Source: a virus
Length of the DNA: 59,428 bases
IMG/VR virus record: IMGVR_UViG_2866649352_000001
Location: 1 to 59,428 of that record
Direction: 5' to 3' (one strand)
Shown: piece after piece, positions 1 through 59,428 of the stretch
Numbering within the stretch: the stretch's first letter is position 1
Layout: each line of letters starts with the position of its first letter
The notes under the pieces: model-generated
Seen by the model: the letters and a program-made list of their open reading frames with translations, nothing else
What the model was told of the DNA's origin: nothing
Database searches by the model: none
Translations under genes and position numbers: made by a program

Positions 1-127
1 GCAATCCACCCACACAAGACGCTCCACGCCTATACCCTCCTTGACCTGCCAAAACACCCGAGCGGAGAGTGTGACATGTCCAGATTTGACCAGCGACGAC
101 GGACTCGATTGTGACAGGACTGTGACA
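1..127. repeat. Terminal direct repeat identical to 59302..59428 (127-bp window-end overlap)
   Basis: Bases 1-127 (gcaatccaccc...ggactgtgaca) recur verbatim as the last 127 bases, so the unique unit is 59,301 bp and circular or circularly permuted. Confidence 0.95.
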
Positions 128-186
128 CCAACTGTGTCACGGACTCTGCCCTGCTCAGAGCTTACTTCTTTCCTCCGAACGAGGGT

Positions 187-212
187 GAACCCCCGGATGT
201 CTCCGGGGGTTC
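187..212 (-). terminator. Stem-loop 3' of the BldC-like gene
   Basis: gaacccccgga-tgtc-tccgggggttc forms an 11-bp stem directly after the minus-strand stop at 218. Confidence 0.6.
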
Positions 213-217
213 ATGCG

Positions 218-418
218 CTACTCCGACGTCTCTGGCTCTCCGTGGAGGAAGGCGAGCACCTCGGACTCGCGGTACCGGCGGTGGCCACCGGCCGTCCGGA
301 TGGAGTTGATCTTTCCCGCCTTCGCCCACCGCGCCACCGTCTTGGGGTCAACGCGGAACAACGCTGCCACCTCGGCTGGAGTCAGCAGGGGCTCGATCGT
401 TGGCGTGTATTTCGGCAT
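218..418 (-). CDS. BldC-like small MerR/excisionase-family DNA-binding protein (66 aa)
   Basis: MPKYTPTIEPLLTPAEVAALFRVDPKTVARWAKAGKINSIRTAGGHRRYRESEVLAFL closely matches my recollection of Streptomyces BldC (EPLLTPAEVA..FRVDPKTV.RWAKAGKL.SIRT.GGHRRYRE.EV). Start chosen at the ATG preceded by AGGAGA; the longer ORF 218..508 has no RBS. Confidence 0.8.
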   Translation of the reverse strand: MPKYTPTIEPLLTPAEVAALFRVDPKTVARWAKAGKINSIRTAGGHRRYRESEVLAFLHGEPETSE

Positions 419-600
419 GGGTCTCCTGTCGTACATGCGAAGGGACCCCGCCGTCCCGGCGGGGTCCCAGCCGCTAATGATCTCGCTGCGATCCGATCGA
501 TAAACCACCTACCTCTCCTGCGAAGGGTTGGAGCCTCCGGACGTGCCAGCACTGGGGTTTGCCCCAGTCCAAGGGGCGTGCACAGCACGCCCGGAGGAGT

Positions 601-975
601 TCATGCCGCCCACCACTCCACGAAGACGATCTTTCCCTTAGGAGCGGTGTACTTGGTTCCCCAGCAGTTGACGATCTTGTCCACAGTCAGGAGACCCCGG
701 CCGGATTCGTCGAACATGCCGATTTGCTGAGGGTCGCGCTTCTCGGGCGGGATAGGGGAGGCGTCCCAGACCTCTATGCCGTAGACGCCGTCCTCGAAGT
801 AGGCGTCTACCCAGAACGAAGTGGTCTCGCCGTGCCGAATCGCGTTGGTCGCCAGCTCGGAGGCGACTAGCTTTACCAGGTGTACGTCGAGTGGCCAGCC
901 CTGGCTCTCGGCGATCTTCGCCACGTGATCACGAGCGGCTTTGACGTTGACTAGATCCGCGTCGAGTTCGATCAC
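601..975 (-). CDS. Anti-sigma-factor-like ATP-binding protein (HATPase_c_2 type), WhiJ-locus-associated class
   Basis: The motifs LVASELATNAIRHG ... FDESGRGL ... fit a GHKL/SpoIIAB-like kinase fold. GTG start at 975 is preceded by GGAGGGAGG. The upstream part of ORF 601..1167 looks non-coding. Confidence 0.7.
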   Translation of the reverse strand: MIELDADLVNVKAARDHVAKIAESQGWPLDVHLVKLVASELATNAIRHGETTSFWVDAYFEDGVYGIEVWDASPIPPEKRDPQQIGMFDESGRGLLTVDKIVNCWGTKYTAPKGKIVFVEWWAA

Positions 976-1109
976 TTCGGCCTCCCTCCTGCTGTCCGTG
1001 AGTCTGGCAGCGCCTTGACACACGTGCGATGCTGTCCGACAGCGTTGACAGCACTTCTTTGAGGAGGGCCCGGAGAACTGTGGCACGTGACCTAGACCCA
1101 AGCTCCAAC
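976..1109. promoter_or_regulatory. Divergent intergenic control region between the ATPase and XRE genes
   Basis: Two TTGACA hexamers (1015-1020, 1045-1050); a 13-bp palindrome GCTGTCCGACAGC (1031-1043); a half-site GCTGTCCG repeated at 991-998. Confidence 0.4.
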
Positions 1110-1877
1110 ATGTGGGACTGGATCGCGATCCAGCTCCGACATGAGCGAGAGAAGCAGAACTGGTCAACGGCGCAGGTCGGACGCCTGCTGAACACTGACC
1201 GGTCGAACATCACGCACATCGAGGCGGGGAGGCGGCACCTCGCCGCAGATCAGGCCGCCAAGCTCGACACCGCGTGGGACACGGGGGGCCGCTTCGCCCA
1301 GATGGTGGACTACGCCCAATCGACGTATCACCCTGACTGGAACCGGGAAAGGCGGACGTACGAGCAGAACGCGACCGCAATCAAGACGTTCCACGCAACC
1401 CTCATCCCTGGGTTGCTCCAAAGCGAGGAGTACGCGCGTGCAGTCTTTGTGGCAGGTGGACGAGCGGATGTCGATGCAGCGGTGGCGGCGCGTCTGGCGC
1501 GACAGGAGGTCCTGAAGCGCCCTGGCGTGAGGCTCTGGGTGCTGCTGGATGAGGCGGTGCTGCTTCGGCCGGTTGGTGGTCCGGCCGTCTGGGCACGCCA
1601 GCTCTCCCATCTACTGAATGCCTCGGAGCAGCCCGATACCGTCCTGCGCATCATCCCATTGGCCTACGGTGAGTACCCTGGTATGGACGGCCCCATAACC
1701 ATTTTCACCATGGACGGCAAGGACGTGGCCTGGACGGACGCTCGGTCCGGGGGTCGGCTGGTGACGGACCCGGCAGCGCTGGACCGATACCGGGTTGAGT
1801 TCGACATGATCGGAGCCGACGCCTTGAGCCGGACTGAGTCGCGACGGCTGCTGACTGAGAAACTGGAGGCATTGTAG
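1110..1877 (+). CDS. XRE-family HTH regulator with DUF5753-like C-terminal domain (WhiJ-like)
   Basis: N-terminal HTH (WSTAQVGRLLNTDRSNITHIEAGRR). The C-terminal ...FHATLIPGLLQSEEYARAV...ARLARQEVL... is typical of Streptomyces WhiJ/Scr1-type XRE proteins. Start taken at ATG 1110. Confidence 0.75.
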   Translation: MWDWIAIQLRHEREKQNWSTAQVGRLLNTDRSNITHIEAGRRHLAADQAAKLDTAWDTGGRFAQMVDYAQSTYHPDWNRERRTYEQNATAIKTFHATLIPGLLQSEEYARAVFVAGGRADVDAAVAARLARQEVLKRPGVRLWVLLDEAVLLRPVGGPAVWARQLSHLLNASEQPDTVLRIIPLAYGEYPGMDGPITIFTMDGKDVAWTDARSGGRLVTDPAALDRYRVEFDMIGADALSRTESRRLLTEKLEAL

Positions 1878-2059
1878 TGATCCACTGGAGGAAGTCTTCG
1901 CGCAGCGATTCGCGTGGAGAGTGTGTCGAGCTGGCCGAGCTGGACAGCTCTGTAGGCATCCGAGACAGCAAGAACCCGGACACCCCCCACCTCACTGTCG
2001 GCCGCGAGGCCCTGTCGGGCCTCCTCAGCCGGATCAAGGCCGGCGAGTTGGACCTGTAG
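1877..2059 (+). CDS. DUF397 domain protein
   Basis: WRKSSRSDSRGECVELA....VGIRDSKNPD.P.L is the DUF397 signature. GTG start overlaps the XRE stop (TAGTG), indicating translational coupling. Confidence 0.8.
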   Translation: MIHWRKSSRSDSRGECVELAELDSSVGIRDSKNPDTPHLTVGREALSGLLSRIKAGELDL

Positions 2060-2067
2060 AACCGCTT

Positions 2068-2088
2068 GACCGGCCTCCAGGGCCGGTC
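2068..2088 (+). terminator. Stem-loop after the DUF397 gene
   Basis: gaccggcc-tccag-ggccggtc lies 9 nt after the stop. Confidence 0.5.
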
Positions 2089-2222
2089 CTAGGCTTCTCT
2101 GTGTGAGGCCGTCACCGTTGCGGCCTAGCAGTTTGGACTTTGGTTCACCTAGCTCGACCCAATCCACGGCCTCACCCCAAGAACCTCCCCTCCGGGGGAG
2201 GTTTTTTGGCTATTCTGGGCTC

Positions 2223-2504
2223 ATGAAGGGCAGAATCCTCCTTTTCGGGGCAGTTTTGGCCGTTGCGACGGCCTGTGGGGCGTCTCAGGACGACCAGATC
2301 GTCATGAAGGACCCATCCAACGGGAAAGAGCGGACCTTCAAGGAGGTCCGAGACATGTTCGCGGACGGTTCGGTCACGACCGGAGGCGAGTCCTGTGCCA
2401 CTTTCGTGTCGTTCGGGGCCAAGGACCAGGGGATCGAGTTCCCGGCCGGACAAGCTGAGTTCGTGAAAGCCTGCGAAGAAGGCTTGAAGGCCAAGTCGAA
2501 TTAG
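2223..2504 (+). CDS. Secreted lipoprotein (93 aa)
   Basis: MKGRILLFGAVLAVATAC is a signal peptide plus lipobox (A-T-A-C). Start taken at ATG 2223 inside ORF 2103..2504. Confidence 0.6.
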   Translation: MKGRILLFGAVLAVATACGASQDDQIVMKDPSNGKERTFKEVRDMFADGSVTTGGESCATFVSFGAKDQGIEFPAGQAEFVKACEEGLKAKSN

Positions 2505-3539
2505 GAATGGCTGAAATGGCCTCTGAACGAGTCTCGGCCCGGACTCGTTCCCTCTCCACCCGGATTAGCCCTGAGGCTCTTAGGAGCCGAATGAGCGCCA
2601 TTTAGAGGCATATGGGACTCCGCGGGGAGTCCCGGTTTTACCATTTCGTGATCTTGGAAGTTTTCCGAGGTGGGATAAGGAATTTTGGTGACGAAACGAC
2701 TACGTTTCGCACTTTCTATTTTCGTACATTTCCGGAGAGGGGAGACGAGTCTCTCCCGCACCCCCGGACGAATGAAGGTACCCCCCCAGGGGTAGGCTGA
2801 CCTGCGGCAACACACTCCCACGCGTGATCACCCTCACTGTATGTGACAGTCATCACTCAATCACATTCAGTGCACGCCGTGCACTGTGATCTGCGCTAAC
2901 ACCATGTGAGTGTGTCACTCACATCATCAACAGTGTGTAGCCACATTGAGTGCATACCTCACGCGCATATGCGCACATGTGCGCACGCGCGGATGAATAA
3001 ACCACGCGCGTACGCGATTAACACACACCTCGCCATTGTGCCAACACCCTCTAAACGGCTCTCAGAGGGCCCGTGAGCGCTTGAACCCCCATTCCCTAGT
3101 CCCACTATGGCCCTGGCCCTATTCGCTGCCTGCCTGGTTAGGGGCACTATTCCTACACTCGGTAATCGACCCCTCACGGGGGCCGATGCTCCCTGGCTCG
3201 GTATCTCGGTTCGGTAACGAAACGCTGCCAGCACCCAAACCCTGCCAAGTGAGCGTCAAGTGAGCTTCCCTCGCGCGTACGCGCGCGAGAGGGAGGCTCG
3301 CGCGTGCGTTGGTTCTTTCATCCGGGCGGGCCGGGACACGCTCCCCGCTCCACGGAGCGTAGTTTCAGAACTCTTTTCAGTGAGTTTCTGAGCCCTGACC
3401 TGGAGAAACGCAAGTCCTCTAAAATATCTTGCTCTTACCTATTGTGACCTGCGGAAACGACCTAAAGCCGCAGGTCAGAAGAACGCACAACCTGTTAAAA
3501 CAGGGTGTTAGCACGTCGTGTGTTTGCTAGCTTTTCGGT

Positions 3540-3925
3540 TGTCAGCAACACGGACCGCCACCACGGGGCCCGGGAAGCAGACGGAGGAACGAAACCCGGC
3601 AACGACGACCGGGAGGGCAGGGACCAAACCGAGGTTCGCGAAGATGCCCATAGTCAGCCGTAGACACTTACGGGCAGGCTCGAACGGAACGTTGGGAAAC
3701 GTGCCGGGCGCGAAAGTGGCGCTTGAAGCCTCGTGAGAAAAATCGCGGGTGAACTAGATGGCTTCGCGGACTATGGCCGGTAGGTCGCCAGCCCAAAGGT
3801 AGCGGGTGAACACGCGCTTACCGTGGGAAACCACCGCCGAAAGGCGGTAGGTCCGGCGGTAACTAGGCAGTCGTACCCGGCGTAAAGCCTTCAACTCAGA
3901 CGCTCGGAAAGTCCTCTGACCAAAG
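3540..3925 (+). ncRNA. Candidate structured RNA or long structured leader (unclassified)
   Basis: Plus-strand GNRA-capped helices: cggaacgtt-GGGA-aacgtgccg (3685-3706), gtgg-GAAA-ccac (3823-3834), cgcc-GAAA-ggcg (3835-3846), a GAAA-containing loop at 3708-3722. Further helices at 3595-3613 and 3658-3673. Internal repeats GCGGGTGAAC x2 and GGTAGGTC x2. No convincing ORF. Confidence 0.25.
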
Positions 3926-3933
3926 GATGGATC

Positions 3934-4266
3934 ATGTACCAACGTCAGATGCAGCGTCCGGACTTCGACGCCAAAAAAGACTTCTCCCAAGCGGAACCTA
4001 CTGACCGTCACCACTACCGGAATAACGGTCTGGGCCGCAGGATGCTCCACCTGTCCAGCGGTAAGGGTACGCGTACGGGAGTGGGCGAGACTAAGCCGTT
4101 CACGGCTGCTCGTAAGTCTCCCCGTAAGCAGAGTTCCGCGCCAAAGGGCTACCCGCCCGCGCGGATGTCGAGTCCGAAGAATGCCGCAGCGCACGAAAAG
4201 CGTATGGCGACGCTTCGCGAACGTCACCCGGACGTTTACGCCCGAATGATGCGTGAAGCCAGCTAG
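3934..4266 (+). CDS. Hypothetical basic protein (110 aa)
   Basis: ATG preceded by AAAGGATGG and followed by a clear terminator. Arg/Lys-rich. Preferred over the antisense ORF 3754..4227. Confidence 0.5.
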   Translation: MYQRQMQRPDFDAKKDFSQAEPTDRHHYRNNGLGRRMLHLSSGKGTRTGVGETKPFTAARKSPRKQSSAPKGYPPARMSSPKNAAAHEKRMATLRERHPDVYARMMREAS

Positions 4267-4279
4267 TACTGTCCGATAA

Positions 4280-4308
4280 AGGCCGACCCTTTTGGGTCGG
4301 CCTTTTTC
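4280..4308 (+). terminator. Intrinsic terminator
   Basis: aggccgaccc-ttttg-ggtcggcct followed by TTTTT. Confidence 0.75.
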
Positions 4309-4322
4309 CTTTGGGAGGGTTA

Positions 4323-4550
4323 ATGGACCTCGCGTTCAGTCCCGGCTACTTCCCGAACGACTTCGGGGGGACGGACATCCTGACCGGCAACGGGGAGTTC
4401 TGTGGCCGGACTGGTCGAACCAAGTTCGACACGTGGGCCGCCGCCATCCCCGATGGGGCGGGTTCGATCGCCATTCTGGGGGCCAACTTCGAGACGGACA
4501 ACGATGCACAGGTGTGCATCTTCCGTGCCCTCGCGAAAAGGGGCTACTGA
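4323..4550 (+). CDS. Hypothetical protein (75 aa)
   Basis: ATG after GGGAGGG; stop overlaps the next start (TGATG). Confidence 0.55.
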   Translation: MDLAFSPGYFPNDFGGTDILTGNGEFCGRTGRTKFDTWAAAIPDGAGSIAILGANFETDNDAQVCIFRALAKRGY

Positions 4551-4705
4551 TGAACCTCGGCAAGCTGAACCGCGACAAGCTGATCGAGGCCGCCGCTAGG
4601 CGCGGCATCCCAGTGGAGGAACTGGAGAAGGCTCTACGGGAGAACAAGACGCTTGTCGCACGTCACGGCGCGACGCATTCGGCCACTTTTTTTGGCCAGT
4701 TTTAG
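4550..4705 (+). CDS. Hypothetical protein (51 aa)
   Basis: MNLGKLNRDKLIEAAARRGIPVEELEKAL...; coupled start. Confidence 0.5.
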   Translation: MNLGKLNRDKLIEAAARRGIPVEELEKALRENKTLVARHGATHSATFFGQF

Positions 4706-4724
4706 CAGGTCGTTAGCAGACCAT
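4692..4724 (+). promoter_or_regulatory. Conserved promoter-like element, copy A (divergent)
   Basis: T-run, TTGGCC, 16-nt spacer, and tandem 11-mers TAGCAGGTCGT TAGCAGACCAT. Same architecture as the copies at 43069, 47564 and 51408. Confidence 0.45.
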
Positions 4725-4854
4725 TAGTGATGAGGTCTCGTGCCTGTCATCTCGACTAGGCCGAAACGTACGCCCATTGCCGTACGTCGCACGCTGACAT
4801 TGCGTGCCCGATGAGTGCCTGTCATCGGTCCGGAAAACCTTCAGGAGGATTTCC

Positions 4855-37341: not shown

Positions 37342-37415
37342 TGGTGACCCCGGCGGGAATCGAACCCGCACCACGAGGGTGAGAACCTCGCAACCTCCCG
37401 TTAGTCCACGGGGCC
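37342..37415 (-). tRNA. tRNA-Glu (CTC)
   Basis: Hand-folded cloverleaf: acceptor GGCCCCG/CGGGGTC, anticodon loop TTCTCAC, T-loop TTCGATT, CCA encoded. Confidence 0.8.
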
Positions 37416-37416
37416 G

Positions 37417-37490
37417 TGGCTCCAGGACAAGGATTCGAACCTCGATTGCCGGGTTCAGAGCCCGGCGTCCTACCGTTAGACGATCCTGGA
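37417..37490 (-). tRNA. tRNA-Gln (CTG)
   Basis: Acceptor TCCAGGA/TCCTGGA, anticodon loop CTCTGAA, T-loop TTCGAAT, G73, CCA encoded. Confidence 0.8.
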
Positions 37491-37495
37491 ATGAG

Positions 37496-37568
37496 TTGGC
37501 TAGGCAGGAGTCGAACCCGCACCTTGCGCTTTAGGAGAGCGACGCTCTGTCCATTGAGCTACTAGCCA
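37496..37568 (-). tRNA. tRNA-Arg (CCT)
   Basis: Acceptor TGGCTAG/CTAGCCA, anticodon loop CTCCTAA, T-loop TTCGACT. Confidence 0.75.
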
Positions 37569-37569
37569 G

Positions 37570-37652
37570 CGGAGAATCAGGGATTCGAACCCCGGACGGT
37601 TTTACCCGCGACGGCCTAGCAAGCCGCTGCCATACCATTTGACGAATTCTCC
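37570..37652 (-). tRNA. tRNA-Ser (GCT), class II
   Basis: Acceptor GGAGAAT/ATTCTCC, anticodon loop TTGCTAG, long variable arm, 83 nt. Confidence 0.7.
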
Positions 37653-37653
37653 A

Positions 37654-37728
37654 TGGAGCCCCACACCGGAGTTGAACCGGTATCCTCTGATTGGAAGTCA
37701 GACATCATTGCCGTTAGACCAGTAGGGC
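37654..37728 (-). tRNA. tRNA-Gly (TCC)
   Basis: Acceptor GCCCTAC/GTGGGGC (one G-U), anticodon loop CTTCCAA, T-loop TTCAACT, CCA encoded. Confidence 0.75.
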
Positions 37729-37794
37729 AAGTACACTCTTTGGCTCCGCCGCATGTATGTCTGCGGACTTTGACGGGTAGAGTGCGGACCTTTG

Positions 37795-37867
37795 AGCCCC
37801 TACGAGGTGCTGCCCCCCGCTTTCCTGCTTACAAGGCAGGTACATTCGCTGATATGTTATAAGGGCT
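37795..37867 (-). tRNA. Candidate non-canonical tRNA-Thr (TGT)
   Basis: 73-nt element with an 8-bp acceptor AGCCCTTA/TAGGGGCT, D stem ACAT/ATGT, a perfect anticodon arm CCTGC-CTTGTAA-GCAGG and T stem CGGGG/CCTCG. The T-loop is GGCAGCA (no TTC) and the D-loop has no GG. Confidence 0.35.
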
Positions 37868-37935
37868 GGTTTTCCCACCAGGACCCATAGTCCCTCCATC
37901 TCCTCAGGGTGCTACCCCTCGGATTAACGGGAACG

Positions 37936-38022
37936 CGGAAAGCGGAGGACTCGAACCCCAACAGCAATGCCATCCACCCGTTTTCGAGACGGGGGCCGCA
38001 CCCACAGGCGACATCACTTTCC
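37936..38022 (-). tRNA. tRNA-Ser (CGA), class II
   Basis: Acceptor GGAAAGT/GCTTTCC, anticodon arm CCCGT-CTCGAAA-ACGGG, T-loop TTCGAGT, 87 nt. Confidence 0.7.
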
Positions 38023-38066
38023 ATCGCACGTCGATATTTTTACACGCCTCGACGGCGGGGCGAGAG

Positions 38067-38139
38067 TTGGTCATGTGGGAATTGAACCCACCATCTTCCG
38101 CGTATCAGACGGATGCTTTCACCACTAAGCTAATGACCA
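38067..38139 (-). tRNA. tRNA-Ile (GAT)
   Basis: Acceptor TGGTCAT/ATGACCA, anticodon loop CTGATAC, T-loop TTCAATT. Confidence 0.7.
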
Positions 38140-38141
38140 AG

Positions 38142-38215
38142 TGGAGCCTGAGAGATTCGAACTCTCGGCCTCTGGTTTGCAAGACCAGCGCTCTAACCAT
38201 CTGAGCTAAGGCCCC
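38142..38215 (-). tRNA. tRNA-Ala (TGC)
   Basis: GGGGCCTTAGCTCAGATGGTTAGAGC..., anticodon loop CTTGCAA, T-loop TTCGAAT, A73. Confidence 0.85.
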
Positions 38216-38610
38216 ATGTACTTTCCTGCGCAAGACCTACCGCAGAACGGTCCGGCCTTGCCTTGCTTCCTGTTGTGTCGCACCTTGCGAGCTTCCTTCT
38301 TTGAAGGCGTCTCACAGACAGGGCAGATGAACTCATACCACTCGACGCTCAACCTCAGAGCTGCACTCTTCTTTGCGTTCTCAGAACGAGTGAGCACGGC
38401 AAGGTTGCTGAGATCGTCGTTGGTCTTGTCCTCGTCGATGTGGTCAACGGTTTCGTCCGTGTCGAGCACCCGGCCGAGATGCTGTTCCATCAGGTGCCGG
38501 GAGTAGAGCTTGGTTGTGCGCTTGCCGTTGTCAGTAAGAACCACGTACCTACGCCCGGCAAGCGGTCCACTGTTGTGGACGTAAGGGCCGTTGACCCTGA
38601 GCATAGACAC
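38206..38610 (-). CDS. HNH homing-type endonuclease inserted in the tRNA array (134 aa)
   Basis: The motif ...VDHIDEDKTNDDLSNLAVLTRSEN... is HNH; C-terminal CPVC...C..SC. The last 10 nt, including the TAG stop, are the first 10 nt of tRNA-Ala. Confidence 0.8.
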   Translation of the reverse strand: MSMLRVNGPYVHNSGPLAGRRYVVLTDNGKRTTKLYSRHLMEQHLGRVLDTDETVDHIDEDKTNDDLSNLAVLTRSENAKKSAALRLSVEWYEFICPVCETPSKKEARKVRHNRKQGKAGPFCGRSCAGKYMGP

Positions 38611-38623
38611 GATCCTTTCGAAG

Positions 38624-38696
38624 TAGGCTCGGAGGGACTCGAACCCTCACTACACGGTTTCTAAGACCGCTCTCTCTACCATTGGAGTACGAGCCT
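38624..38696 (-). tRNA. tRNA with anticodon TAG (Leu codon CUA/CUG) but class I (short variable arm) body
   Basis: Acceptor AGGCTCG/CGAGCCT, D-loop AATGGTAG, anticodon arm GCGGT-CTTAGAA-ACCGT, 5-nt variable loop GTAGT, T arm GAGGG-TTCGAGT-CCCTC, A73. Confidence 0.65.
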
Positions 38697-38704
38697 AAGA
38701 AAAT

Positions 38705-38729
38705 ATGGGGTTGGTGGATTCGAACCACC
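38705..38729 (-). pseudogene. Orphan tRNA 3' half (T arm plus acceptor 3' strand) without a matching 5' half
   Basis: Perfect T arm GGTGG-TTCGAAT-CCACC followed by AACCCCA. No complementary TGGGGTT occurs in the next 100 nt (38730-38801), which instead forms GC-rich hairpins. Confidence 0.4.
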
Positions 38730-38801
38730 TCGCGTACCGCAGAGCCAGCCGCTTTCCCATGTGTCCGCGTCCGGACGCCCCGCCCGCCGTCGCGGGCTTT
38801 G

Positions 38802-38875
38802 CTGACCATGCAGGACTCGAACCTGCACCACCGGGATTAACAGTCCCGCGCACTACCTAGTTATGCTAATGGCCA
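38802..38875 (-). tRNA. tRNA-Asn (GTT)
   Basis: Acceptor TGGCCAT/ATGGTCA, anticodon arm CGGGA-CTGTTAA-TCCCG, T-loop TTCGAGT. Confidence 0.8.
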
Positions 38876-38920
38876 TTGAAGAGAAAATGAGGGGGCGCTA
38901 GCTTCCCCCTCATCATGATG

Positions 38921-38993
38921 TAGGTCCACCAGGATTCGAACCTGGACAACTCCGGGTAAGAGCCGGATGCACTGGCCGTTATGCTATAGACCC
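38921..38993 (-). tRNA. tRNA-Lys (CTT)
   Basis: Acceptor GGGTCTA/TGGACCT (two G-U), anticodon arm TCCGG-CTCTTAC-CCGGA, T-loop TTCGAAT. Confidence 0.75.
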
Positions 38994-39049
38994 ATGACGT
39001 AGGCTGTACCGTGCTACGCCCCACGGGAGGGGATTTACAGAACCCTCAG

Positions 39050-39122
39050 TGTGACTCCCAGGAATCGAACCTGAGACCTGCCGGGCTTCAACCGGCCGCT
39101 CTTCCAACTGAGCTAGAGCCAC
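39050..39122 (-). tRNA. tRNA-Phe (GAA)
   Basis: GTGGCTCTAGCTCAGTTGG..., anticodon arm GCCGG-TTGAAGC-CCGGC, T-loop TTCGATT. Confidence 0.85.
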
Positions 39123-39123
39123 A

Positions 39124-39198
39124 TGGAAGCGCCAACGAGATTCGAACTCGTATGAAGCAGGGTTGCAATCTGCTGCCTCACCATTCAGCCATGGCGCT
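39124..39198 (-). tRNA. tRNA-Cys (GCA)
   Basis: Acceptor AGCGCCA/TGGCGCT, anticodon loop TTGCAAC, U73 discriminator, CCA encoded. Confidence 0.75.
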
Positions 39199-39202
39199 TC
39201 GG

Positions 39203-39277
39203 CGATCCGTACCGGATTCGAACCGGCAACCTTCGGCGTGACAAGCCGATGCTCTAACCTGATTGAGCTAACAGACC
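39203..39277 (-). tRNA. tRNA-Asp (GTC)
   Basis: Acceptor GGTCTGT/ACGGATC (G-U pairs), anticodon arm TCGGC-TTGTCAC-GCCGA, G73. Confidence 0.75.
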
Positions 39278-39282
39278 GAGAG

Positions 39283-39354
39283 TACCCGTTCCAGGATTCG
39301 AACCCGGATTCCGAGGTTCGTAGCCTCGTGCTCTATCCGTTGAACTAAACGGGC
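39283..39354 (-). tRNA. tRNA-Arg (ACG)
   Basis: Acceptor GCCCGTT/AACGGGT, anticodon arm CGAGG-CTACGAA-CCTCG, T-loop TTCGAAT. Confidence 0.8.
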
Positions 39355-39406
39355 ATAGAGCAGGCGGAGCCTGCTCCAAGAGGGGACAACCTACGTTGTC
39401 CCTGAG

Positions 39407-39479
39407 GGTGACCAGAGGGAGTTGAACCCTCGCCTACAGGATCACAACCTGTCGTGCAAACCCTTTACACCTTGGCCAC
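39407..39479 (-). tRNA. tRNA-His (GTG)
   Basis: Acceptor GTGGCCA/TGGTCAC, anticodon arm ACAGG-TTGTGAT-CCTGT, C73; no encoded G-1 seen. Confidence 0.75.
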
Positions 39480-39481
39480 AG

Positions 39482-39553
39482 TAGATCCTCTTGGATTCGA
39501 ACCAAGGCCAACCTGTTTGTAGGACAGGCGCTCTTCCGCTGAGCTAAGGATCC
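39482..39553 (-). tRNA. tRNA-Val (TAC)
   Basis: Acceptor GGATCCT/AGGATCT, anticodon arm CCTGT-CCTACAA-ACAGG, with C rather than U at position 33, which is atypical. Confidence 0.65.
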
Positions 39554-39579
39554 ATAAGCACGGCGGAGCCGTGCTGACG

Positions 39580-39652
39580 TCGCGGACGCCTGGAGTTGCA
39601 CCAGGGGCCTTCGGGTTATGAGCCCGCTGCTCTACTACTGAGCTACGCCGCG
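39580..39652 (-). tRNA. tRNA-Met-type (CAT); initiator, elongator or Ile2 identity unresolved
   Basis: 5' CGCGGCG TA GCTC...; anticodon arm GCGGG-CTCATAA-CCCGA (three G-C pairs next to the loop); T arm CCTGG-TGCAACT-CCAGG (non-canonical loop); acceptor 3' strand CG(T)CCGCG needs one bulged T. Confidence 0.55.
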
Positions 39653-39710
39653 TAGTGGCTTTTGACCGGAGCCTCCAACCGGAACGATTCTTATGGCGTC
39701 GATCTACCCG

Positions 39711-39783
39711 TATACCCAGAGGGATTCGAACCCCCACCCCCGTGGTCCCAAACCACGTGCTCTAGCCATTAAGCTACGGGTAT
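39711..39783 (-). tRNA. tRNA-Pro (TGG)
   Basis: Acceptor ATACCCG/TGGGTAT, anticodon arm CGTGG-TTTGGGA-CCACG, T-loop TTCGAAT. Confidence 0.75.
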
Positions 39784-39926
39784 ATGTTTGTGGGCTGGTG
39801 AGTCTGTCAAGTACTCACACTTAGCTGTGAACAGAGCCCACTGAAATCCGGACCTCACATGCTGACGGAGTCAGCAGGCTTGAACCTGCAAGCTCCGCTT
39901 GCATGTAAGGGAACGGATGGTTTAAG

Positions 39927-39999
39927 CACGACGGGTAGGACTCGAACCTACACACACTGGTTTTGGAGACCAGCGCTCTTCCAATTGAGCTACCGACGC
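39927..39999 (-). tRNA. tRNA-Trp (CCA)
   Basis: Acceptor GCGTCGG/CCGTCGT (one U-U mismatch), anticodon arm CTGGT-CTCCAAA-ACCAG, G73. Confidence 0.7.
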
Positions 40000-40000
40000 A

Positions 40001-40083
40001 TGGTGCGCAGGGTAGGAGTCGAACCTACACAGCCAAGGGCGCCTGGTTTACAGCCAGGGCGACTCGCCAATGTCCGCCTACGC
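40001..40083 (-). tRNA. tRNA-Tyr (GTA), class II
   Basis: Acceptor GCGTAGG/CCTGCGC, anticodon arm CCTGG-CTGTAAA-CCAGG, 13-nt variable arm, CCA encoded. Confidence 0.75.
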
Positions 40084-41390: not shown

Positions 41391-41426
41391 TTACAGCAGC
41401 TTGATAGCAGTGTGTTAGCGTCAGCC
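41391..41426 (+). promoter_or_regulatory. Conserved promoter-like element, copy E (divergent)
   Basis: ACAGCAGCTTGA TAGCAGTGTGT TAGCGTCAGCC shows 11-nt phasing as in the other copies; lies 60 nt upstream of the HTH gene. Confidence 0.35.
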
Positions 41427-41486
41427 TGCCAAGGGCCCATCGGGCCCAGACCAGCTCTGACCCCCACAAGCGAGGTGTGCTTCCCC

Positions 41487-41963
41487 ATGGCCCGACCTAG
41501 GAAGGTAGAAGACGAAGTACTCGTCCAAATGGTCCTGGACGAGATCCCTTACGCCGAAATCGCGAGTGAGGTCGGCGTGACGATCTCTGGCGTGAATCAG
41601 AGAGTTCGCCAACTACGGCGAGCGGGCAAGCTCCCGCCCGTGAAGTACGTGGACCATAAATGGGCGATTCCGTGGACCATCGCCACTGAGCACCAGAAGA
41701 ACCGGGTTGCGATGTATCTACGGTGGCTTTCCAGGACGGCCCAGGGCGATGAAATCCTCCAGGAGAATCGCAACACTGCGCTTAGGTGGGCCCAGACGCT
41801 AGTAGACGAGAATCGCGACGTCGATTATGACCGAGACGCGCCACCAAACGATCTGAGCAAGCAGGGGGGATTCTTCCTCAGGGAGGCAGACCCTGAGAAT
41901 TGGCACCTGAAGATGGTTTTGGACAAGGCCAAGGCAGGTGTCCTCAAGAACAAGAAGCGCTGA
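41487..41963 (+). CDS. HTH DNA-binding protein (158 aa), first gene of the rightward block
   Basis: IPYAEIASEVGVTISGVNQRVRQLRRAG is an HTH of sigma-region-4/LuxR-like shape. Confidence 0.55.
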   Translation: MARPRKVEDEVLVQMVLDEIPYAEIASEVGVTISGVNQRVRQLRRAGKLPPVKYVDHKWAIPWTIATEHQKNRVAMYLRWLSRTAQGDEILQENRNTALRWAQTLVDENRDVDYDRDAPPNDLSKQGGFFLREADPENWHLKMVLDKAKAGVLKNKKR

Positions 41964-43057: not shown

Positions 43058-43068
43058 GTCTCTCTTTT

Positions 43069-43101
43069 TTGACTCATTACAGCACATCGTTAGCACAGTG
43101 A
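43069..43101 (+). promoter_or_regulatory. Conserved promoter-like element, copy B
   Basis: T-run, TTGACT, 16-nt spacer, cAGCACATCGT TAGCACAGTGA, then GAGGAGG RBS. Confidence 0.5.
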
Positions 43102-43112
43102 GAGGAGGTGCT

Positions 43113-46794: not shown

Positions 46795-47572
46795 TGTCCA
46801 GATGCCCTATGAATCAAAGCGGATGCTGAAGAACGTCATTGACTTCATTGGCGTCTGGCAGCCGGACGAGGTTTACCAGATCGGGGACCTCATGGACTAC
46901 CCGACTCCGTCTCGGTGGTCGAAGGGAACTCGGGACGAGTTCGCCCAGCTCGTCAAGGAGCACAGCGAGTACGGGAAGCGCAACTTCCTCGATCCTCTCC
47001 GGGCCGTCTACGACGGGCCGGTAGGCGTGTTGGAGGGCAACCACGACGAGCGGCCTCGGGTCTACCTGACCAAGGAAGCTCCAGCTCTGGCCGAGTTCCA
47101 GGATGTTGTGCACTTCAGCACCCTGTTGGATTTCGACGGCTTCGGAGTGAGCCACACGCCCGCCTTTCACAAGGTCGGACCTGACACCGTGCTCGTTCAT
47201 GGCCACGAGATCAAGGGCTACTCGTCCGTCGCAGGGACGACTGCTTACAACCATGCTCGGAAGGCTGGAGCCAATGTCATCTGCGGACACACTCACCGTC
47301 TTGGAATACGACGAGAGACTTTCGGAAACAGTTCAACGGGATATACGACCCGATGGGGATTCGAAGTCGGACATCTCATGGCAATGGATAAGGCCGGATA
47401 CCTTGGCGCTGGTGGAGTCGCGAACTGGCAGGCGGGTTTTGGTCTGCTCTACGTCGGCGACTACGACGTCCAGCCCGTAGAGGTGGACGTCAATCGGGAT
47501 GGCTCCTTCGTCGTCGAAGGCACCCGCTATGGCGCTCTGAAGAGGGGCCCCGGTGGTCGTTTTTCGGTCTAG
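46769..47572 (+). CDS. Calcineurin-like metallophosphoesterase
   Basis: Motifs ISDVQMP, GDLMD, GNHDE, VHGHE, GHTH. Confidence 0.75.
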   Translation: MKRVVVISDVQMPYESKRMLKNVIDFIGVWQPDEVYQIGDLMDYPTPSRWSKGTRDEFAQLVKEHSEYGKRNFLDPLRAVYDGPVGVLEGNHDERPRVYLTKEAPALAEFQDVVHFSTLLDFDGFGVSHTPAFHKVGPDTVLVHGHEIKGYSSVAGTTAYNHARKAGANVICGHTHRLGIRRETFGNSSTGYTTRWGFEVGHLMAMDKAGYLGAGGVANWQAGFGLLYVGDYDVQPVEVDVNRDGSFVVEGTRYGALKRGPGGRFSV

Positions 47573-47597
47573 TTTTAGCACATTGTTAGCACATTGA
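47564..47597 (+). promoter_or_regulatory. Conserved promoter-like element, copy C
   Basis: T-run, CGGTCT, 16-nt spacer, and TAGCACATTGT TAGCACATTGA (a near-perfect tandem 11-mer). Confidence 0.5.
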
Positions 47598-47611
47598 GAG
47601 TAGGTGAGAAC

Positions 47612-51388: not shown

Positions 51389-51407
51389 CCTGAGCCCAGT
51401 CCTTTTT

Positions 51408-51440
51408 TTGGCTAGTTATAGCACATTGTTAGCACATTGA
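51408..51440 (+). promoter_or_regulatory. Conserved promoter-like element, copy D
   Basis: T-run, TTGGCT, 16-nt spacer, TAGCACATTGT TAGCACATTGA; followed by the hairpin gagggcaccctcc-tccg-ggagggtgccctc and the polA RBS. Confidence 0.5.
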
Positions 51441-51486
51441 GGGCACCCTCCTCCGGGAGGGTGCCCTCCGTCTTGGAGGGAGGGGG

Positions 51487-57784: not shown

Positions 57785-57955
57785 ATGACCCTCCAGGAGA
57801 CAGCAGATTACCTTCACATGTCCCGATCCTGGGTTTACGAGAGAATCCACTCCATCCCCAACTTCAAGGTCGGGGGTAAGCGTCTGTTCCGTAAGAGTGA
57901 AGTGGACAAGTGGCTTGAGGCTTTCCGTAAGGGAAGTCCGCTAGCCCTCCTGTAA
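57785..57955 (+). CDS. xis: Excisionase-family HTH protein (56 aa)
   Basis: MTLQETADYLHMSRSWVYERIHSIPNFKVGGKRLFRKSEVDKWL is an Xis/MerR-type winged helix; convergent with int. Confidence 0.7.
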   Translation: MTLQETADYLHMSRSWVYERIHSIPNFKVGGKRLFRKSEVDKWLEAFRKGSPLALL

Positions 57956-57999: not shown

Positions 58000-59211
58000 C
58001 TAGCTTCGGCTGCCCAGAAGAAGCTTCGCCATCTCGGCGGCGATGGCCTTCTTCTCTTCCTCGCTGTGGTCGTATATCTCGACCACGGCCCGGGAGCGCT
58101 GTCCGAGGGCATCCCCAACCGTGTCCCGAGAGGCTCCCAGATCACTCGCGATGGTCGCCCACATGTGCCGTAGGTCGTGGGGAGACGCCGGGGGAAGCTC
58201 TGCGTACCGGCCGAGGCGTCTGAACCGCTCCGTGACGTTACCGGGGTCCATCGGGATACCGGGCAGGAATACCCGTCCCTTCACTGACTTCTTCAGGATC
58301 GGGCGGTCGAAGACCACACCGGTTTCCTCCCAAGGCCCCTCGGCCTTGGCCTTCTCTTGCCGCTCCTTCTGACCGAGGAGGATTTCCTCCAGCAGGTCGT
58401 CCATGTGCAGGACGATCCGCCGGCCGCCCTTCTGGCTGACCTCTACGACCCCTTCAGGGGTAATGGTCCGGTTGGTGGAAGCAACGATACGGTGCTTCTC
58501 AAAGTCGATGTCGGACCATTTGAGGCCCAAGGCCGTTCCCCGGCGAACGCCAGTGGCAGCCATGAAGCACCACAGAGCCCTGAAGGAGGGCTCTGTTTCC
58601 ATCTTCAGGAAGTCGAGGAACTGCTCGACGGTCCATCGCTCCTTGGGGGTGGTCTTCCGATCTGCGTCGTAGTGGAGGGCCTCTTCGCGAAGCTTCCGGA
58701 CGCCACCAGAGACCTTGGTCCAATCCGCGTCCAGGAGGTGGTTCACCACGCCGTAATCCATGATGGCGGAGAGGACAGTCACCCTGTTGACAAGCGTCGT
58801 CGGGACGCGAGGCTCGCCCTTGTACTTGATGGCCCGGATCTTCAGTACCCACTGGTCTACGTGTAGGGGGAGGATCTCATCCAGGGCCATCCCCCCGAGG
58901 TAGGGCTCGATGTCCCTCTTGTACCAGGTCTTCCAGTGGGAGCTGGTCGTGCTCTTGACCGTCTCAGCGGCCCAGAACATCTCCGCCAACTTGTTGAGGG
59001 TCATACTCTTGGTCGGCCGCTTCTTGGCGGCCTGCTGTGCCTTGATCCACTCGACAGCGGCTTTGTGGTCTTTGAGACCGCGCTTCCAGAGCCGTTCGGA
59101 CTTCTTCGTGAACGGGTCCTTGATGCTGACGGCGGCGTCGTAGACGATCTCGCCGTTGGCGAGCGTCCTCGGCCGGATGCTTCCGGCCCCATTCCTCGCC
59201 CTCTTGCCCAT
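58000..59211 (-). CDS. int: Tyrosine integrase (403 aa)
   Basis: Catalytic-domain signatures ...GVRRGTALGLKWSD..., ...HDLRHMWATIASDLG... and ...VEIYDH (R, HxxR, Y). ATG 59211 follows GGAGGG; the TTG at 59226 is the alternative start. Confidence 0.85.
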   Translation of the reverse strand: MGKRARNGAGSIRPRTLANGEIVYDAAVSIKDPFTKKSERLWKRGLKDHKAAVEWIKAQQAAKKRPTKSMTLNKLAEMFWAAETVKSTTSSHWKTWYKRDIEPYLGGMALDEILPLHVDQWVLKIRAIKYKGEPRVPTTLVNRVTVLSAIMDYGVVNHLLDADWTKVSGGVRKLREEALHYDADRKTTPKERWTVEQFLDFLKMETEPSFRALWCFMAATGVRRGTALGLKWSDIDFEKHRIVASTNRTITPEGVVEVSQKGGRRIVLHMDDLLEEILLGQKERQEKAKAEGPWEETGVVFDRPILKKSVKGRVFLPGIPMDPGNVTERFRRLGRYAELPPASPHDLRHMWATIASDLGASRDTVGDALGQRSRAVVEIYDHSEEEKKAIAAEMAKLLLGSRS

Positions 59212-59301
59212 GTCCCTCCAGCTCAACTGTGACAGGAACTACAGCATACGCGCTCCGTCGCCGTGTCGAACGAGGTCAGAGGGATGTGGATCTTGCTTCT
59301 A
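59212..59301. other. attP-candidate intergenic region (continues across the circular junction into 1..186)
   Basis: About 300 bp of non-coding sequence next to int. It contains CTGTGACAGG (59227-59236), TTGTGACAGG (109-118), GTGTGACATG (69-78) and the inverted repeat GTGACAC-N5-GTGTCAC (122-140). The core was not identifiable. Confidence 0.3.
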
Positions 59302-59428
59302 GCAATCCACCCACACAAGACGCTCCACGCCTATACCCTCCTTGACCTGCCAAAACACCCGAGCGGAGAGTGTGACATGTCCAGATTTGACCAGCGACGA
59401 CGGACTCGATTGTGACAGGACTGTGACA
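59302..59428. repeat. Second copy of the 127-bp terminal overlap
   Basis: Identical to 1..127. Confidence 0.95.

Follow-up and report, generated by a model that had tools for sequence, protein, structure and literature searches.

Background

In filamentous actinomycetes, the small DNA-binding protein BldC delays sporulation. It acts as a brake on entry into development, and it is among the most widely conserved of the brakes on actinomycete development. To our knowledge, the ways in which phages handle or exploit the switch of their filamentous hosts from vegetative growth to sporulation are largely unknown.

BldC of Streptomyces coelicolor and S. venezuelae (SCO4091; structures 6AMA and 6AMK) is a lone MerR-type winged helix-turn-helix (wHTH) domain without a dimerization or effector domain, and its structural relation to Xis and RdfS is well established. 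Roles have been assigned to 21 of its residues, in phosphate and base contacts, wing insertion, or the head-to-tail interface (Schumacher et al. 2018, PMC5859096). The closest described phage proteins are the excisionases and Xis-like regulators of actinophages, among them Pukovnik Xis (4J2N), L5/D29 gp36, Brujita gp35, and Brevibacterium AGM2 gp34. The Xis homolog of mycobacteriophage D29, gp36, acts as a regulator of phage genes (PMC12266134). Phages also carry homologs of WhiB- and Lsr2-type host regulators, likewise conserved actinobacterial families, and the BldC family is not among the regulators treated in the article on these phage-borne proteins (PMC8612146). Of the papers found by full-text searches for BldC and phage (open-access PMC, bioRxiv), none describes a phage-encoded BldC homolog, as judged from titles, abstracts, and selected passages. 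AbaA, WhiJ, and BldB are a second group of Streptomyces developmental regulators relevant here; a canonical abaA–whiJ–bldB arrangement of their genes has been described for Streptomyces, and the record number of BldB paralogs, 94, is held by an Actinomadura genome (PMC10294661).

The DNA analyzed here, referred to as the window, is a viral contig of 59,428 nucleotides. A previous reading made from the sequence alone had proposed that it encodes a homolog of BldC distinct from the phage excisionase.

Results and discussion

A BldC-family protein encoded by a phage of Actinomadura

Bases 1-127 of the window were repeated exactly at 59302-59428. This 127-nt terminal overlap indicates that the contig is a closed circle of 59,301 bp (59.3 kb), and on the circular map the features at both ends of the window, namely the integrase gene (int), a set of TGTGACA repeats, and the BldC-like gene, are therefore neighbors. 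The element had been taken for a phage, and the hallmark genes agreed with this: it encodes a terminase, an endolysin, an HNH endonuclease, an exonuclease, a tape measure protein, and a tyrosine integrase, and it carries a tRNA array and, in the structural block, an ORF of 1319 aa. The large terminase was 52-58% identical to those of the Streptomyces phages Ponzi, Success, and Ibantik and of Thermobifida phage P318, and the replication module was syntenic with that of Success. The window is thus a temperate phage related to Success, Ponzi, and Ibantik. When the integrase was used as a query against IMG/VR, only generic integrases at ≤31% identity were found, and no related phages.

The BldC-like gene was located as follows.

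218..418, minus strand: BldC-family winged-HTH gene, 66 aa; ATG at 418, stop TAG at 220-218

Position, strand, and translation were as given in the sequence-only reading, and an AGGAGA ribosome binding site (RBS) lies 6 nt 5' of the ATG. The product is a true member of the BldC family. BldC was the top match among all solved structures in a sequence search, and the alignments to 6AMA (E 2.5e-26) and 6AMK (E 1.5e-24) were ungapped with ~75% identity; length and residue numbering are shared with BldC. The near co-linearity with BldC proposed in the earlier reading, including its core motif, was confirmed by these alignments. The NCBIfam model for the family (NF033787 HTH_BldC) was matched at 100.9 bits against a curated cutoff of 77 (E 2.5e-29), and Pfam HTH_17 (2e-14, 54 bits) and MerR matches spanned residues 11-58. 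The excisionase model TIGR01764 'excise' was matched as well, at 38.9 bits against a cutoff of 28.8. As in Streptomyces BldC, the MerR-type wHTH accounts for the whole protein, with no coiled-coil or effector domain in either the Pfam search or the AlphaFold2 (AF2) model.

A protein identical to this one is already annotated at NCBI as 'BldC family transcriptional regulator', so the family assignment is not new; the interest of the protein lies in its phage context and in the adjoining triad of abaA-, whiJ-, and bldB-like genes described below. The identical NCBI protein comes from Actinomadura sp. KC216 (Thermomonosporaceae, Streptosporangiales), which places the host in Actinomadura and not in Streptomyces. 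The gene differs from bldC of S. coelicolor and S. venezuelae both in its host and in being phage-borne rather than at the chromosomal bldC locus.

The BldC-like protein also matched, at 221-418 and 1e-13, the PADLOC model for mad1, the HTH component of a methylation-associated defense system, while the NCBIfam MADS1 model instead matched the other HTH_17 protein of the window, weakly and under its cutoff. The five scanned neighbors of the gene had no PADLOC match, and no other mad gene was seen adjoining. With no further defense gene alongside, the mad1 match was judged to be generic HTH_17 similarity, and the defense-system reading was dropped as probably reflecting no more than this.

Comparison with cellular BldC and with phage excisionases

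A hidden Markov model was built from 55 non-redundant chromosomal BldC orthologs (Kineosporiales, Jiangellales, Micromonosporales, Propionibacteriales, Frankiales, and other orders). Scores against this model were as follows.

Cellular orthologs: 134-153 bits
BldC-like protein of the window: 117.9 bits
IMG/VR viral homologs: a continuum from 138 down to 55 bits
Xis, Cro, and "excise" proteins of isolated actinophages: 37-50 bits
Other HTH_17 protein of the window (57785..57955): 9.5 bits

Together with the NF033787 match, the distance from the Xis- and Cro-like scores bears out the proposal that the protein belongs with BldC rather than with ordinary phage excisionases. The actinophage Xis-like proteins share with it the HTH_17 wHTH, small size, and proximity to an integrase, and cooperative binding to direct repeats would be expected of both by analogy, but they are only 28-46% identical to it and retain 10-12 of the 21 residues with assigned roles in BldC.

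Structural comparison gave the same picture. The AF2 model (pLDDT 82.5) had an H-H-β-β-H topology with no additional domain. In a Foldseek search with this model, the seven best matches were all chains of 6AMA or 6AMK (target-normalized TM 0.86-0.94, rmsd 0.8-0.9 Å), and the best superposition was on 6AMA (TM 0.94, rmsd 0.8 Å). RacA, SoxR, and Pukovnik Xis made up the next tier, at 25-35% identity; the Foldseek E value was 3.5e-7 for BldC versus 1.6e-2 for Pukovnik Xis (4J2N).

Nineteen of the 21 residues with assigned roles in BldC were identical in the phage protein, the exceptions being T29A and L43A. In the DNA-contact set (A15, D24, K26, T27, T29, R30, W31, K33, K36, H46, R47, R48) 11 of 12 residues were identical, including the DNA-reading K26, R30, H46, R47, and R48, and T29A amounts to the loss of one phosphate contact. 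In the head-to-tail set (F21, V23, and W31 against L11, I40, T42, L43, and G44, plus the E16–R22 salt bridge) 9 of 10 were identical; L11, E16, F21, R22, V23, W31, I40, T42, and G44 were kept, and L43A changes an interface residue. Conservation of the BldC-like fold, the family signature, the DNA-reading residues, and most of the head-to-tail interface is thereby shown.

The two exceptions fall at positions that did not vary among the 29 distinct cellular cores examined. Position 43 is leucine in 29/29 of these cores and alanine, proline, or valine in 13/28 viral homologs. T29A and L43A may alter affinity or cooperativity. Further differences from cellular BldC are found in L37I, at N38, and in R55L and L57F. 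Across the 52-residue core the phage protein was 79-87% identical to cellular copies, which were 85-100% identical among themselves.

These differences set a limit on the resemblance. The phage protein is not a near-copy of BldC at the grade of an ortholog: its gene lies on a circular phage contig, its score lies just below the cellular range, and it departs from BldC at two invariant positions. It is a diverged xenolog or paralog, not an ortholog. It did not cluster with ordinary excisionases, the outcome named in the earlier reading as counting against a BldC homolog. For a neighbor-joining tree (500 bootstraps), the 52 core columns are too short to settle whether it falls inside or outside the cellular clade. 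Its commonest sister in the bootstraps (110/500) was the phage-borne P0120, which shares both T29A and L43A and whose gene belongs to a phage-like operon that also encodes WhiB and a DNA methylase.

A probable accessory cassette next to paralogs of developmental regulators

The gene is preceded on its own strand by an abaA-like gene and is set off by hairpins on both sides. These features and the genes that follow were annotated as listed.

186..213, minus strand: perfect 12-bp hairpin directly past the BldC-like stop, terminator-like but without a U tract (inverted repeat I4; z -4.84)
419..468, minus strand: 5' leader; contains the RBS (AGGAGA) and, 23 nt ahead of the ATG, a GC-rich hairpin with a perfect 12-bp stem (442-468; inverted repeat I5)
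534..597, minus strand: long stem-loop directly past the abaA-like stop (inverted repeat I3; fold)
604..987, minus strand: AbaA-like HATPase_c_2 protein with an anti-sigma-factor-type kinase fold (Pfam 1.7e-09; phrog_12354 7e-15)
1080..1877, plus strand: WhiJ-like XRE-HTH + DUF5753 regulator, divergent from the abaA-like gene (Pfam DUF5753 2.8e-51, HTH_31)
1877..2059, plus strand: BldB-like DUF397 protein; its start overlaps the stop of the whiJ-like gene (Pfam DUF397 3.9e-18)
2103..2504, plus strand: 133-aa protein, closing the accessory island ahead of a gene-poor stretch (ORF list, gene call)

On the circle, the order along the minus strand is the abaA-like gene, the stem-loop, a spacer of ~65 nt, the 5' hairpin, the RBS and BldC-like gene, the 3' hairpin, a 290-bp spacer, and int. 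The region 405-603 folded with a z of -4.28. A scan of 1-2600 found no σ70-type promoter sites, for the BldC-like gene or otherwise, and the 5' hairpin at 442-468 could be a terminator, which would count against independent transcription of the gene.

The abaA–whiJ–bldB-like triad at 604-2059 is complete, with the HATPase_c gene divergent from the XRE-DUF5753 gene and the latter followed by an overlapping DUF397 gene. This is the layout of the clusters described for Streptomyces and Actinomadura; unlike those clusters, the present one is phage-borne, and its products are paralogs of the named developmental regulators (PMC10294661). The WhiJ-like and BldB-like proteins were 33% and 43% identical to gp6 and gp7 of phage Success, respectively. 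Between the two divergent genes, at 988-1079, there are two TTGACA hexamers and a GCTGTCCGACAGC palindrome. The 133-aa protein had no match in NCBIfam, PHROGs, or PADLOC.

Success has the XRE-DUF5753/DUF397 pair and shares the replication module, yet it lacks the BldC-like gene and has a different small HTH gene (gp12) directly upstream of int. More generally, tblastn with the BldC-like protein found no match in Success, Ponzi, Ibantik, or P318, though all four share the terminase. The BldC-like gene would therefore resemble a moron: a candidate accessory cassette beside the triad, in an island with the early genes on one side and int and the TGTGACA repeats on the other. Its absence from Success, the bracketing hairpins, and the three developmental-regulator paralogs alongside favor the reading that the gene encodes an accessory regulator acting on BldC-type sites. 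We prefer this reading tentatively, as one that may well be wrong. Counted against it is that the gene adjoins int and the possible attP repeats, a position that would also fit a recombination directionality factor (RDF).

Position next to the integrase

The features of the int region were as follows.

58000..59226, minus strand: tyrosine integrase (Pfam Phage_integrase 3e-17; phrog_1 4.7e-48)
57785..57955, plus strand: second small wHTH gene, last gene of the rightward replication operon (HTH_17 4.6e-12; TIGR01764 'excise')
59228..59234, plus strand: TGTGACA copy 1, lying ~17 nt 5' of ATG 59211, where int probably starts
70..140, plus strand: TGTGACA direct repeats at 70-76, 110-116, and 121-127 and an inverted variant at 133-140

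The integrase ORF was listed from a TTG at 59226, but the ATG at 59211, with a well-spaced GGAGG upstream, is the likelier start. A separate excisionase-type gene had been reported at 57785..57955, and its two family matches support this; the protein fails the NF033787 BldC model. The gene is convergent with int and is the positional equivalent of gp12 in Success. The description of the BldC-like gene as distinct from an int-linked excisionase held in part. There are indeed two separate genes, but on the circle both small wHTH genes flank int, with the BldC-like gene ~290 bp upstream of int and on the same strand, and the contrast between a linked and an unlinked gene is correspondingly weaker.

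A GTGACA-rich region, also noted earlier, was recovered as well: TGTGACA occurs 13 times (10 unique) versus 5.6 expected, a count reached in 0/100 shuffles. The spacer between int and the BldC-like gene contains four direct copies and one inverted variant, and two copies 11 bp apart resemble integrase arm-type sites. The cluster at 70..140 is a candidate for integrase arm-type sites or an operator, and the repeat cluster may be attP. No attP was located, and the int-proximal region and positions 1-4800 contained no tRNA fragment or other RNA family beyond noise.

On this evidence the BldC-like protein could be an RDF, whether the actual Xis or an additional one, which bends attP or attR arm DNA for Int-mediated excision. 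The 'excise' and HTH_17 matches agree with such a role, as do the shared strand and short distance to int with arm-type-looking repeats in between, and BldC shares its fold and filament formation with λ Xis, Pukovnik Xis, and RdfS. However, the conserved int-proximal slot is occupied by another excise-type HTH both here and in Success, a strong hairpin (186..213) stands between the BldC-like gene and int, the int-proximal intergenic region has no AT-rich direct repeats, and neither attP nor a tRNA fragment was found. Linkage to int also appears not to be conserved in related viral loci, as only 3 of 150 neighbors at 25 loci were tyrosine integrases, and one locus has a serine-integrase-type Gp3-like RDF instead. 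We consider an RDF role unlikely. In particular, the other TIGR01764-type HTH gene, placed like gp12 of Success where the early operon comes closest to int, and the rarity of tyrosine integrases among the neighbors indicate that the BldC-like protein is probably not the primary phage excisionase.

BldC-like genes in other viruses

Among 50,697 GenBank phage records, no BldC-like match exceeded 52% identity, save on an unverified 13.9-kb "Bacteriophage sp." scaffold, and no Streptomyces phage matched at E ≤ 1e-3. The nearest homologs in isolated phages, at 40-52% identity, were divergently oriented from the immunity repressor and annotated as Cro or excise. In IMG/VR, 30 viral-contig loci were matched, of which ~25 had a convincing BldC-like gene. 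Two had unusual architectures: one (L016, 6004-6405) encodes two tandem BldC-like wHTH domains in a single 133-aa protein, and in another (L009, 5977-6444) one BldC-like domain is fused to a C-terminal extension of ~90 aa.

The 150 proteins encoded within ±3 kb of the gene at 25 of the IMG/VR loci were searched with Pfam. They included RecT, DUF3799, PD-(D/E)XK, RusA, DnaB, exonucleases, HNH, Lsr2, DUF397, a holin, and the Gp3-like RDF. WhiB and a methylase are likewise encoded near viral BldC-like genes, so that WhiB and Lsr2, the regulator families already described from phages, and DUF397 are all found beside them. Integrase linkage was rare, with Phage_integrase in 3/150 and Resolvase in 1/150; a home-made integrase HMM recovered one of the three integrases detected by Pfam. 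Most of the viral genes, in the IMG/VR contigs and in a phage fragment from a Microbispora MAG, were in early, recombination, or replication operons. This suggests that phage-directed regulation is the ancestral viral role.

The BldC-like protein of the window might, then, be a transcriptional or architectural regulator of the phage itself, controlling an early/late switch or int expression, with any effect on the host incidental. Besides the operons with DnaB, RecT, PD-(D/E)XK, exonuclease, RusA, WhiB, and methylase genes, the Cro-like position of the homologs in isolated phages favors this role, and D29 gp36, which binds direct repeats and regulates phage genes, provides a precedent (PMC12266134). 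A binding factor is also needed for a 43-nt element that stands at operon starts in four copies, each with tandem 11-bp TTAGCACATTG units. The position of the gene in this phage fits less well; it is outside the early operon and away from the following gene.

41412..41963: candidate repressor (phrog_357)

The distance to this candidate argues against a Cro-position role. Furthermore, the related phage Success does without a BldC-like gene, BldC-type repeats are not enriched in the phage genome, and the 11-bp TTAGCACATTG repeats are at odds with the 9-bp AATTN4C rule. Phage-directed regulation is possible but on balance improbable for this protein.

It might also be asked whether the gene has any selected role, or is a neutral passenger, a fragment derived from a host. 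The best non-self match among 5.8 billion proteins searched was at ≤85% identity over partial length, and a search of genome contigs gave no copy above 85% identity among the 80 matches listed, most of which were chromosomal bldC orthologs. The first of these results would be in keeping with a passenger. Against this, the ORF is intact and has a good RBS, 19/21 functional residues are kept, and similar genes recur in ~25 independent viral contigs. GC3 of the gene is 0.85, compared with 0.755 ± 0.055 for phage genes and an average of 0.845 for cellular bldC genes; this comparison neither marks the gene as foreign to the phage nor dates its acquisition. A neutral passenger is barely credible.

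Possible action on BldC-type sites

The accessory-regulator reading can be extended to a mechanism. As its recognition helix and wing are essentially those of BldC, we infer that the phage protein would, like BldC, assemble cooperatively head to tail on AT-rich direct repeats and would be expected to bind BldC-type sites of the host chromosome. At host sites it would be a mimic, a competitor, or a co-assembling partner of the host BldC, during lysogeny or infection. Expression from a prophage might, as suggested in the earlier reading, delay sporulation or retarget the BldC regulon, and the gene might be dispensable for excision.

The phage genome itself contains 8 matches to the BldC consensus AATTN4CAATTN4C versus 16 expected, none of them in regulatory regions, and no phased AT-rich arrays were found in phage regulatory regions. 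This lack of enrichment makes BldC-type sites of the host the most obvious targets, though the missing consensus matches are weak evidence because BldC reads DNA largely by shape (indirect readout).

A more far-reaching version takes the whole island as a means of hijacking development. The BldC paralog, its interface changed by L43A and its phosphate contact by T29A, would join host BldC in head-to-tail filaments at developmental promoters of the host or displace it there, the AbaA-, WhiJ-, and BldB-like proteins would plug into paralogous networks of the host, and infected or lysogenic hyphae would be held in vegetative growth, as phage replication needs. This full scenario is quite unlikely to be right as it stands; the general idea of host hijack, drawn from gene content, is plausible, and the phage may tune the life cycle of its host. 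If the scenario were true, the ~25 metagenomic viral genes of the BldC family would represent a widespread and undescribed strategy, analogous to phage WhiB and Lsr2 and to the sporulation sigma factors of Bacillus phages. A mere phage regulator or RDF would be an ordinary result. The protein is in addition a natural variant, with the DNA-reading surface of BldC kept and an interface residue changed, that can be used to probe viral use of the BldC regulon, and it is useful for the proposed evolutionary link from Xis-type architectural proteins to BldC-type transcription factors.

Other features of the phage genome

The tRNA array lies on the minus strand at 37342-40083. ARAGORN predicted 20 tRNA genes in it. 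The Rfam total was likewise 20, two of which (37795-37866 and 39581-39651) were extra candidates with weak scores. An array of 20 tRNAs is large for a temperate phage of 59 kb, and the GC content of the phage (~60%) is well under that expected of an Actinomadura host.

The 43-nt element is present at 4683-4725, 43060-43102, 47556-47598, and 51399-51441. Each copy consists of a T-run followed by two tandem 11-bp TTAGCACATTG units and is located directly upstream of a block of plus-strand genes. These elements are probably phage promoter or regulator sites.

In a genome that is otherwise densely coded, the ~1.8 kb at 2505-4310 has hardly any convincing coding potential. No Rfam family was matched in this stretch, and TGTGACA/GTGTCAC motifs occur in it at 2842 and 2912. 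Toward its end there is an ORF of 110 aa with low GC3 (3934-4266), followed by a classical terminator at 4283-4310.
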